A stretch of 64,000 bases of DNA, taken from assembly GCA_000091205.1 (NCBI GenBank), contig AP006492.2; one strand, given 5' to 3'. This DNA is from Cyanidioschyzon merolae. Its lineage: Eukaryota. The notes under the pieces were generated by a model that saw only the letters and a program-made list of their open reading frames with translations, ran no database searches and was not told the origin of the DNA. The translations under genes and the position numbers were made by a program. This document shows, one piece after another, positions 34,718 to 37,050 of this stretch (position 1 is the stretch's first letter; the number at the start of each line of letters is the position of its first letter).

Positions 34718-36976
34718 ATGGTGGTGAAAACCTTCCTTCTTAAACATATCAAGGATCCGTGCAAGGAAAAGTTGCGAGACGCTATCAAAAAACGTGTCGA
34801 CTCGTACTCCAAGAGTATTGTCAAGGCGTCGTCAGTACTGATGCATTTGGTGAGGGAGATGTATCGCGACGTGACGCACATGGAAACAGTCGAGATTCCT
34901 GACGATTTTTTCGACAAGACGTTTATTCGTCACCTGATGCTTGGCACAGCGGAAGCGCTGAAGGAAAATATGCTAGTGCACGCCCTCCACGAAAACTTGG
35001 TGGAATTCCGCTTCGAAGGTAATCGATACAGGGGTGCCTCGGATATTTAGGCATACGGAGCGAAAAAGTACATCACGAGTCTGAAGAACCATTTGACAGT
35101 GAACCTCGAACGTTTTATGATACGCGCGGTGGGTACACTCTACCCGGGCATCTTTCGCAACGGAAAATGGGCGATTATCAATGGCATCATGAAAGATCGA
35201 AAGTATGAAGTTGAGATCGAGTTTGTCGATAAGAAGGCGTCACGCAGGAGCGCAAATGAAGCTTCTGTAATCCGTGCGGCTATCCAAGAGTATCGTGCAG
35301 TCCTGGGGCTGGCGAATTTGGCAGAAAATTTATCAGAGTTGAAAAAAGATAAGGAAAGATACTACCGCCTCATCCTGTGATATTTCGTGTTTCTGGACCG
35401 AGAGCTCGAACGCGAAGCGGAGATGAAGCTGAGTGAAGAGACAAATCAAGAGTGGGAGAGACGGAAGGCTTTCCTAATGGGTAAGCGCTTCAACGGCGTT
35501 CCAATGTGCAATATCAAGTCACATTTCGTGACTATCGATTCAGGCGTCCTTTACGGCATCATGAGGGAGATCTGTCCGGAGTTCGATGTGAGCAGGGAGG
35601 ACTTCATCGGTGAAAACCGGGAGACGTACTGGAAGAGTATCTTCGATTTCAAACGTCTCAAAGTCAGCAAACAAAAGGTATTTACTGGGTTGATCGAAAC
35701 CGATGGAGTAGCCACGTGTGTACTCTATCGGCGGTTGAAGAAAGATCGTCCAGTTCCGCCCTCGGCCGCGCCCGTCACGAGGGATGCAGAAAACAAAGAG
35801 GAGGATTCTGTGATGCAGGAGGTGGAGGATACCGAGTTTGTCGTTGACGTGACGAAGGATGAAGAAAACAAAGAGGAGCATCCTGCTACGCAGGAGGTGG
35901 AGGATAACGACCTTGTCGTTGACGTGGCGAAGGATGAAGATGAGAAGAAGGCGGATCCTTCGGCGCAGGAGGTGGAGAATAACGACTTTATGGTTGACGC
36001 GGCGAAGCATGAAGAAAACAAGGAGGCGGGTCCTGCGACGCAGGAGGTGCAGGAGAACGACTTGGTCGTTGGCCTTGACCCTGGGAGCACGACCATCCTA
36101 GCCATTGCTGCACCCAAGCGTGCGGAAGACGGTACTGACGGCAAATTACGTCAGAAAGACATGCGTGTGTTCAAGCTCTCGAATGCGAGATATTACCGGG
36201 AATCGGGAACCATGAATGCGAGGAAGAAAATTGAGACTTGGAATTCAGGAATAAAAGAGCACCTGGAAGCTATGAGCGAGGTGACGAGCCGAGGAGCGGA
36301 CTTTCGAGCTTTTCGGAAATTCATGGAAGTTCGTGTTGCTCATTGGGAGGCGCTGTTGGAGGAGTATACAAAGCCCGTGTGAGCTCGTCTGTGTATGAAT
36401 CTGTATTGTGGAAAGCAGCGTGCATTCGCGAACTTTTTCCATGAGTTGAGCGCCTCGAAAGAGGACAAGACTCAAAGGCTCGTCGTAGCGCACAGAGCGG
36501 TGCACTGGATGACCCAAAAAGGGACTCCGCCAGCTCCAACGACGAGAACGTACAAGGAGTGTGCACGGCGTTTTGTTACAATACCTGCAGACGAGTTCCG
36601 AACATCTTATACACACCATGAGCTGGGTTGTAAACTTCAGAGGGTCGAGATGAAAATGTGCCAGCGGAGCCCTAAGGACATAGCAAAGTACGGACCGCTG
36701 ACGGAGGAGCTAATGGAAAGGAGGGCGAAAGTTCGTGGACTCTTTGCATTAGTAAGTGCAACCAGTGATGGCAAGAAACGTATGGAGTTTGTGAACCGCG
36801 ACTTTAATGCTGCCATCAATATAACGAGATATGCGGTGCTGGAGACGAGACCTCCAGAGCAGACAAGAGAGCTCTTTGTTGAACAGTCACTAAAAGTTGA
36901 ACTATATGAGAAGAAATGGGAAGCAGTAGTGGATGGCCGTTCGAAAAAGACGGGGAGGCGTCTGCATGTTAGTTAA
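34718..36976 (+). pseudogene. Fanzor (TnpB-like RNA-guided nuclease homolog) ORF in copy B. In-frame stops: TAG at 35048, TGA at 35378, TGA at 36380.
   Basis: The four ORF-track segments 34718..35050, 35093..35380, 35387..36382 and 36395..36976 are all in frame 2 and separated only by stop codons. The first stop corresponds to TAC (Tyr) in copy C. Confidence 0.75.
35785..36065 (+). repeat. 69-bp in-frame tandem repeat, 4 units. It encodes acidic 23-aa units ([25 protein letters not shown]) just upstream of RuvC-I in copy B.
   Basis: Repeated protein units are visible in the 35387..36382 translation. Copy C has one unit and copy D about two. Confidence 0.75.
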
Positions 36977-37050
36977 TGACGTCTGCACTAGGGCGGGTTT
37001 CGCCGCCTCTACACCGCCGGTGACACCGTTTTTCTTTTGAAAGACGTTTG
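36826..37050 (+). ncRNA. Candidate omega-RNA scaffold region. It spans the 3' end of the Fanzor ORF and the conserved non-coding right end, with hairpins GGCGG-GTTTCG-CCGCC and GACACCG...CGGTGTC-like.
   Basis: The 74 bp after the stop codon are conserved with copy C and partly with D and A. Conservation ends abruptly at 37050 (B) and 46709 (C), where the flanks differ. In OMEGA systems the omega-RNA is encoded at this position. Confidence 0.35.

Follow-up and report, generated by a model that had tools for sequence, protein, structure and literature searches.

The right end of CMe-1A, a Fanzor-carrying repeat of Cyanidioschyzon merolae, is probably (at a rough probability of 0.7) the template for the scaffold of a Fanzor omega-RNA (reRNA), and it is given this weight because the end fits the published Fanzor1 RNAs in position, strand, size and shape. 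The protein encoded by the repeat belongs to the Fanzor1 family, the repeat has a right boundary common to the family, and a fold of three stems is conserved directly in front of it. Attention had been drawn to this end by a sequence-only reading of the region 36826-37050, which extends from just past the RuvC-III motif of one copy, through the stop codon, up to the family right boundary; it was proposed there that the region encodes an omega-RNA and that the adjacent flank supplies the guide. The sequence observations behind this proposal are for the most part right, and what stands of it is the position and a conserved fold, which has three stems on the sense strand; the covarying hairpin cited in its favour, the idea of freely varying guides and the functional status of the locus are incorrect or claimed too strongly.

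The window, i.e. the whole stretch of 64,000 nucleotides (64 kb) that was analysed, comes from C. merolae 10D, the organism in which CMe-1A was described; two housekeeping ORFs in it are identical to proteins of this strain. It contains four copies of one repeat of about 2.7 kb, and all four are decayed members of the CMe-1A family:

583-1911, minus strand: copy A of CMe-1A, 5'-truncated
34338-37050, plus strand: copy B of CMe-1A, consensus positions 687-3169 at 85-87% identity
46709-49830, minus strand: copy C of CMe-1A, full-length, with 46713-49830 corresponding to consensus positions 24-3169
58398-60995, minus strand: copy D of CMe-1A

Alignment of the four copies with the published CMe-1A consensus gave nucleotide identities of 83.7-87.4%. 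Since that consensus aligns to all of them and ends at 37046, the element is, on the evidence of the alignment, already catalogued. It was described in C. merolae by Bao & Jurka in 2013 (PMC3627910) as a repeat of about 150 copies, each approximately 80% identical to a consensus of 3169 bp that encodes a single-exon Fanzor1 of 734 aa. The first 635 bp (5') of the consensus are another repeat, TE-N2_CMe, and the element, without inverted repeats or detectable target duplications, was left unclassified (PMC3627910). RNA guidance had not yet been discovered when that paper appeared, and it contains no description of an RNA (PMC3627910); no paper on an RNA of CMe-1A was found in the open-access literature. 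The TE-N2 part is missing from copies B and D, and a head-to-tail tandem arrangement is frequent among the copies of the family. A metagenome scan yielded 79 loci with amino-acid identities of 80-90%, belonging to the same or a very close organism, one of which (L028) is the orthologue of copy A.

Judged from profile comparisons and from its catalytic motifs, the open reading frame next to the flagged region is a Fanzor1 nuclease gene. The consensus-repaired protein of the repeat found 76 relatives, and the profile made from these relatives matches solved Fanzor1 structures, with E = 7.8e-19 for PpFz1 (9cf0), E = 1.3e-9 for SpuFz1 (8gkh) and E = 7e-3 for GtFz1 (9cer). Only the homologue profile succeeded in this respect, the single-sequence search against the solved structures giving no match. 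In the profile alignment the catalytic motifs DPG, DEFRTS and NRD align with the solved structures, and both the family consensus and copy B possess the split RuvC motifs, i.e. the aspartate in DPG, the relocated glutamate in DEFRTS and the aspartate in NRDxNAA. The last of these is located in copy B as follows:

36794-36823, plus strand: RuvC-III motif NRDFNAAINI of copy B, aligned to the solved Fanzor1 structures

Pfam searches with the ORF fragments and with the reconstructed CMe-1A protein returned nothing useful, a match to Cas12f1-like_TNB (a zinc-finger/TNB domain) at E = 0.12 lying below the curated cut-off. Diversity by codon position demonstrated that the RuvC half of the CMe-1A protein is under purifying selection.

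Judged from their reading frames, all four copies in the window are pseudogenes. The single reading frame of copy B extends over about 830 codons and is interrupted by three stops, and stops or frameshifts are present in copies A, C and D as well. Copies B and C have a TGA nonsense codon in common, and in both of them the AYGAG motif is mutated to AHRAV. Within the family, an ORF of at least 650 aa is kept in only 2 of the 45 copies examined.

As for the boundary, it had been stated that copies B and C share 74 nt after the stop codon and that their identity stops at exactly one position in each copy. Both statements are correct: the TAA of copy B occupies 36974-36976 and is followed by 74 nt up to 37050, and the B-C identity ends exactly at 37050 in the one and 46709 in the other. 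The segments 35998-37050 of B and 46709-47761 of C are 97% identical over 1053 nt, in comparison with 72-78% upstream of this tract. Because of this difference, together with the shared TGA, the sharp 37050/46709 edge is read from the identities as the end of a recent gene-conversion tract between B and C that reaches the limit of their shared homology. The family evidence comes from elsewhere. The published consensus ends at 37046, 4 nt short of the B/C edge, and the similarity among 43 independent copies breaks off no more than a few nt from GGCGTT[T/C/G]G. In copy B the boundary is the following feature:

37047-37050, plus strand: TTTG tail, family boundary GTT[T/C/G][G/A] and end of the B-C identity

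The boundary proposed earlier is real across the family, although it is fuzzier than the B/C edge alone would imply and is followed by about 12 flank positions that are non-random. The alignment also bears out that copies D and A share the layout seen at the right ends of B and C.

In about 90 family copies the last ~80 nt of the repeat form three stems on the sense strand. The corresponding features of copy B, and the right-end tails of the three other copies with their scores against the family covariance model, are:

36977-36990, plus strand: remnant of stem 1, with the family form AGACG-TTT-CGTCT over the normal TAG stop, broken in B
36992-37007, plus strand: stem 2, GGCG, variable loop and CGCC, the stem being invariant across the family
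37008-37026, plus strand: linker, family consensus ACTACTGTACACCG...
37027-37046, plus strand: terminal hairpin of B, CGTTTTTC-TTTT-GAAAGACG, from 3'-anchored folding, covariance model and consensus
559-637, minus strand: right-end tail of copy A, 66.6 bits
58398-58483, minus strand: right-end tail of copy D, 52.2 bits
46709-46787, minus strand: right-end tail of copy C, 40.2 bits

The terminal hairpin has 10-14 bp with its base at the element end; part of the family has the form CGTCGTTCGA-CTT-TCGAACGGCG, and in B, C and D the form is CGTTTTTC-TTTT-GAAAGRCG. The linker, conserved in the family and reading ACTACTGTACAC in the 3'-end alignment, is altered in B and C by a small deletion and substitutions. 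With 25.2 bits the right end of copy B has the lowest score of the 93 family ends found with the covariance model. Because this end is the worst-scoring of all and the four window copies are pseudogenes, the B locus is at best a relic, and copy B is, on its sequence, almost certainly non-functional; at most, an RNA from this locus could act in trans with the protein of an intact copy elsewhere.

Of 43 distinct tails, about 38 form the terminal hairpin when folding is anchored at the 3' end. The types of base pair vary at equivalent positions of this hairpin (e.g. U-A in 14 and G-C in 16), and it is retained by two subfamilies whose stem sequences differ. The frequent G-U pairs make this a fold of the sense strand specifically. 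On the plain alignment of 237 columns, RNAalifold gave no meaningful structure, just one spurious helix, and covariation measured on the plain alignment with one fixed register showed no excess over shuffles. The terminal hairpin failed in the fixed register because the subfamilies pair with an offset of 3 columns, and after this failure the 3'-anchored folding and the covariance model were used instead. A crude scan for stacked pairs was too noisy for use. In the alignment of subfamily 1 (30 sequences), 89% of the cells were paired in comparison with 30-50% for slid partners, and covariation amounted to 0.113 versus 0.095 in shuffles, 5 of 500 shuffles being as high. The covariance model retrieved 93 family right ends. 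In the alignment fitted to it, which comprises 70 distinct copies, is biased towards the model and is the only one where covariation is clear, 83% of cells were paired versus 34-51% after sliding, and 13 of 21 pairs had changed on both sides versus 7.5 in shuffles (0/500).

The covariation expected across copies is thus lacking in the plain alignment, modest in subfamily 1 and clear after fitting to the model. The example originally offered for it, a GGCG/CGCC hairpin with compensatory-looking differences, turned out to be wrong because stem 2 never changes on both sides: it is paired in 97% of cases among the 70 distinct copies with no pair changed on both sides, and only its loop varies. The genuine double changes are located in the terminal hairpin and in the first stem. 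Folding energies were only mildly better than those of shuffled sequences (mean z = -0.8, with per-copy z from -0.06 to -3.6). No Rfam family reached its threshold anywhere in the window, and the tRNA scan was empty.

It could be argued that the tail is simply the plain 3' untranslated region of an old repeat, conserved by recent ancestry and without any function as an RNA guide. Such an explanation would agree with the restriction of the 97% B/C identity to 35998-37050 and with the shared nonsense codon, with the diversity of the non-coding tail (0.22-0.25, about equal to that of synonymous sites), and with the negative RNAalifold and shuffle tests on the sequence alignment. It is nevertheless improbable in view of the boundary common to 43 independent copies, with the published consensus end only 4 nt away, the maintenance of the terminal hairpin by two subfamilies with different stem sequences, and, in the subfamily-1 and model-fitted alignments, pairing far above that of slid versions with double changes above those of shuffles.

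The omega-RNA scaffold, the preferred reading of this tail, may also extend upstream into the coding end of copy B:

36826-36976, plus strand: final ~50 codons and premature TAA of copy B, from codon-position diversity

In these final ~50 codons (approximately 36815-36976) the diversity is 0.15-0.19 at codon positions 1/2 and 0.19-0.24 at position 3, the corresponding values in the RuvC core being 0.10-0.15 and 0.25-0.30. An overlap of the scaffold with the coding end is considered because the protein constraint is weaker and the third-position diversity lower there; the values are compatible with such an overlap rather than proof of it.

The sequences beyond the boundary are less simple than had been supposed. 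Directly past it come 20 nt that read TTTCCAGGGGTGAAAGCGAC in copy B and GCGGTGTCGGGCGTGCACGT in copy C. The two flanks are indeed unrelated to each other, but a part of each recurs beside other copies. The flanks quoted earlier are correct except for the end of the D flank, which reads ...GGAGGTGCG and not ...GGTGCC, the last two bases having been wrong; the presence of GGTGTCGG in the flanks of both C and D is confirmed. Two of the flank segments taken for guides are found again elsewhere:

37051-37062, plus strand: TTTCCAGGGGTG, counted as guide in the sequence-only reading, found directly after the right ends of seven independent copies
46689-46708, minus strand: C flank GCGGTGTCGGGCGTGCACGT, 19 of its 20 nt also present after copy L045

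After the shared TTTCCAGGGGTG the sequences of the seven independent copies diverge, and the segment is either an extension of the element's end or a sequence preferred as a target. Copies A, C and D are similar for about 30 nt past the boundary, and the extension found in A, C, D and L045 repeats the linker imperfectly and in inverted orientation. Of 43 independent flanks, 15 contain GGTG in their first 12 nt, in comparison with a background of 3.7% (p = 2e-11); adenine is nearly absent at the first three flank positions, and the bias fades after about 12 nt. Most flanks in the family differ beyond the boundary, though 12-19-mers recur at independent sites, and the copies with shared flanks are scattered on a tree that is star-like and poorly resolved.

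A search of 578 kb with the four predicted 20-nt guides gave matches only to their own loci and to L045. Internal complements to the B or C flank were sought and none was found, and pairing of the scaffold with its own flank showed no overall difference from pairing with swapped flanks (p = 0.42). The named 20-nt guides, presented as free flank, are largely sequences common to other copies. As a consequence, a true guide, should there be one, may begin some 12 nt or more farther from the element; alternatively, the copies may have a common preferred target. The first ~12 flank nucleotides could belong to the scaffold, reflect a preference for certain targets or have been carried over from the parent locus. 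The first of these has a counterpart among Fanzor1 reRNAs, in which sequence that is dictated by transposition and lies just outside the element has been absorbed into the scaffold (Yoon et al. 2023, PMC10711439), and such absorption could explain the non-random start of the CMe-1A flanks.

The enrichment of GGTG, the recurrence of TTTCCAGGGGTG, the 19-mer shared by C and L045 and the extensions complementary to the linker have together led to a further and highly speculative idea, namely that a new CMe-1A copy inserts beside sequence matching the guide or linker of its parent, or brings the parental guide with it, the RNA or the hairpin end helping to choose or mark the insertion sites. This is very unlikely; if true, it would mean that an RNA or a hairpin end is involved in insertion-site choice in a eukaryote.

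Several properties of the ends raise the possibility, doubtful but to be taken seriously, that the hairpins are mainly a DNA-level mobility signal, instead of or beside an RNA scaffold, for example a single-strand end for an HUH/Helitron2-like or IS200/605-like enzyme, or a replication terminator. Terminal inverted repeats and target-site duplications were found neither here nor in the original description (PMC3627910), which also reports Helitron2 elements with hairpins at both ends, some of them carrying Fanzor1. A hairpin is present at the left boundary of CMe-1A, too (GCGCTC-GGT-GAGCGC or GCGCG-GTCGATA-CGCGC, seen by eye in the alignment), the copies often stand in head-to-tail tandem, the 12-30 nt past the end are common to unrelated insertion sites, as with termination overshoot, and the inverted linker copy in A, C, D and L045 points in the same direction. 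On the other hand, Pfam scans of the ORF fragments of Fanzor and of the element with the reverse transcriptase revealed neither a Rep/helicase nor another transposase, and the ends are unlike the TC...CTRR of canonical Helitrons. In IS200/605 elements one end serves both mobility and omega-RNA roles, and for this reason a DNA-level signal would leave the omega-RNA possible.

It has also been considered whether TE-N2 and Fanzor constitute a composite spread by LINE-mediated retrotransposition of an antisense transcript, in which case the right end would be nothing but the 5' end of that transcript. TE-N2 (635 bp) shares a terminus of ~300 nt and the adjacent T-run with the element at 29969-34257, whose opposite strand codes for a reverse transcriptase (RVT_1, E = 4.6e-13), and the unit of TE-N2 and Fanzor recurs as a single block in many diverged copies. 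However, target-site duplications were sought around 10 composite copies and none was found, a few conserved bases are located beyond the T-run, other copies have different sequences upstream of the identical Fanzor left boundary, and the fold is one of the sense strand specifically, all of which makes this route hardly probable. The T-run/GACAAAACGTTTAC was, in addition, evaluated as the left end of a transposon with a short inverted repeat, and was rejected because the reverse transcriptase is on the opposite strand.

If the right end of CMe-1A is indeed an omega-RNA template, the scaffold would be transcribed as, or processed from, the sense transcript of the element, the RNA would be extended into the downstream DNA, which would supply the guide, and the ribonucleoprotein would cut matching DNA beside a transposon-adjacent motif (TAM). 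What has been observed is the identity of the protein family, the boundary of the repeat family and the conserved fold of three stems; that the tail is transcribed, where the guide lies and how long it is, and that DNA is cut are predictions. Should it be confirmed, this would represent a compact guide-RNA scaffold (~80 nt) for a red-algal Fanzor1 from a thermo-acidophile, and it would explain why the old CMe-1A family has kept its coding capacity, a puzzle raised in 2013. C. merolae has good genetics and public RNA-seq. At present the result mainly confirms, from sequence comparison, the right-end architecture expected in a known Fanzor family; the copies in the window are relics.

With respect to known systems, the window copies resemble first of all the CMe-1A consensus itself, with a single-exon Fanzor1 ORF of ~3 kb and a 3' end within 4 nt. 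Helitron2 elements are similar in lacking classical inverted repeats, in having a hairpin close to either end (the left one of CMe-1A being seen by eye) and, in some members, in carrying a Fanzor1; their Rep/helicase partner, asymmetric inverted repeat and typical end nucleotides did not come to light in the CMe-1A ORFs and ends analysed. In ISDra2 and other TnpB systems of the IS200-IS605 type, the guide RNA includes both the right-end hairpin and sequence from the 3' end of the nuclease gene and takes its guide from the flank, as is proposed here; these systems differ in being bacterial and in having a pseudoknot, a TnpA partner and a guide that starts exactly at the boundary. The Fanzor1 reRNAs are built of three stems, lack a pseudoknot, end in a double-stranded stem and reach about 15 nt past the element or its target-site duplication (PMC10711439). 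Those of SfAV and insect viruses are thus like the predicted CMe-1A RNA in the three-stem shape, the absence of a pseudoknot and the terminal nucleotides lying in a double-stranded stem, although their elements have clear inverted repeats and target duplications and CMe-1A has neither. The omega-RNA of SpuFz1 from Spizellomyces punctatus consists of a 75-nt scaffold with two stems and a linker and of a 15-nt guide (Saito et al. 2023, PMC10432273). It was established by RNA-seq, cleavage assays and cryo-EM, whereas CMe-1A is known from sequence alone, the relation between the two proteins is detectable only with a profile, and CMe-1A, unlike SpuFz1, is without visible inverted repeats. The predicted RNA agrees with that of SpuFz1 in lying on the sense strand, in reaching from the end (3') of the ORF up to the right end, and in combining a short scaffold with a flank-derived guide. 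Since the three-stem right end matches the published Fanzor1 guide-RNA scaffolds, the omega-RNA is a reasonable interpretation and the best available, albeit one that concerns a known Fanzor1 family.

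Just past the right end of the CMe-1A Fanzor1 repeat (~2.7 kb), whose last ~80 nt are the candidate omega-RNA scaffold, 20–30 nt imperfectly repeat the linker, the conserved stretch 5' of the terminal hairpin, in inverted orientation. This holds for the pseudogene copies C, D and A and for the metagenome locus L045:

46680-46708, minus-strand copy C
58370-58397, minus-strand copy D
530-558, minus-strand copy A
1724-1750 of L045

In L045, GTACACGCCCGAC pairs with GTCGGGCGTGCAC. The inverted copy makes the right end a longer palindrome. The B/C/D subfamily has T5 and T4 runs in its terminal hairpin (37029-37038 in the plus-strand copy B and equivalent positions in C and D). 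RNA polymerase III would terminate at these runs ahead of any guide, so that a candidate omega-RNA at the B/C/D right end would need either a Pol II transcript or mRNA processing as its source.

Copies B and C are linked by a gene-conversion tract (35998-37050 and 46709-47761, respectively), which is 97% identical compared with 72–78% upstream, and nonsense and motif mutations are common to both. Among family copies, diversity does not differ by codon position in the N-terminal half of the ORF (35330-35780), and purifying selection is clear in the RuvC half (36005-36860). The ORF also contains a 75-bp in-frame tandem repeat, with four units in B and A and one or two in C, D and the published consensus:

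35773-36072, repeat in B
1530-1841, repeat in A

Head-to-tail tandem Fanzor copies are frequent, with a spacing of 3.1–3.9 kb, and some loci have an isolated right-end fragment ~0.8 kb upstream of the following copy (metagenome loci listed for these arrangements: L016; L042/L044/L046/L047; L051/L053; L072; L031/L041).

By eye in the alignment, the left boundary carries a short putative hairpin of its own, GCGCTC-GGT-GAGCGC or GCGCG-GTCGATA-CGCGC, and the Fanzor unit thus appears to have hairpins at both ends, without inverted repeats. This boundary is repeatedly adjoined by retroelement pieces in either orientation, meeting it by their 5' end in B, C and D and by their poly-A end in four metagenome loci (L017, L029, L044 and L077):

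~34320-34360, ~49190-49210 and ~60975-60995, putative left-boundary hairpins
34257/34338 (B), 49281/49208 (C) and 61003/60995 (D), retroelement/Fanzor junctions

From these junctions, the left boundary looks as if it were a recurrent break or insertion site.

The retroelement and TE-N2_CMe, a repeat equal to the first 635 bp (5' end) of the published CMe-1A consensus, were assigned to the following intervals:

29969-34257, ~4.3 kb retroelement encoding a minus-strand reverse transcriptase (RVT_1 at 31782-32123, E = 4.6e-13), with a T-run at 29969 as its terminus
1912-5223, second interval
61003-62267, 8720-9285, 24704-25286 and 49281-49830, further intervals

A tail of ~300 nt is common to the reverse-transcriptase element and TE-N2. 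On that basis, TE-N2 looks to be derived from a non-LTR retrotransposon, as a SINE-like or 5'-truncated form in antisense orientation to the Fanzor gene.
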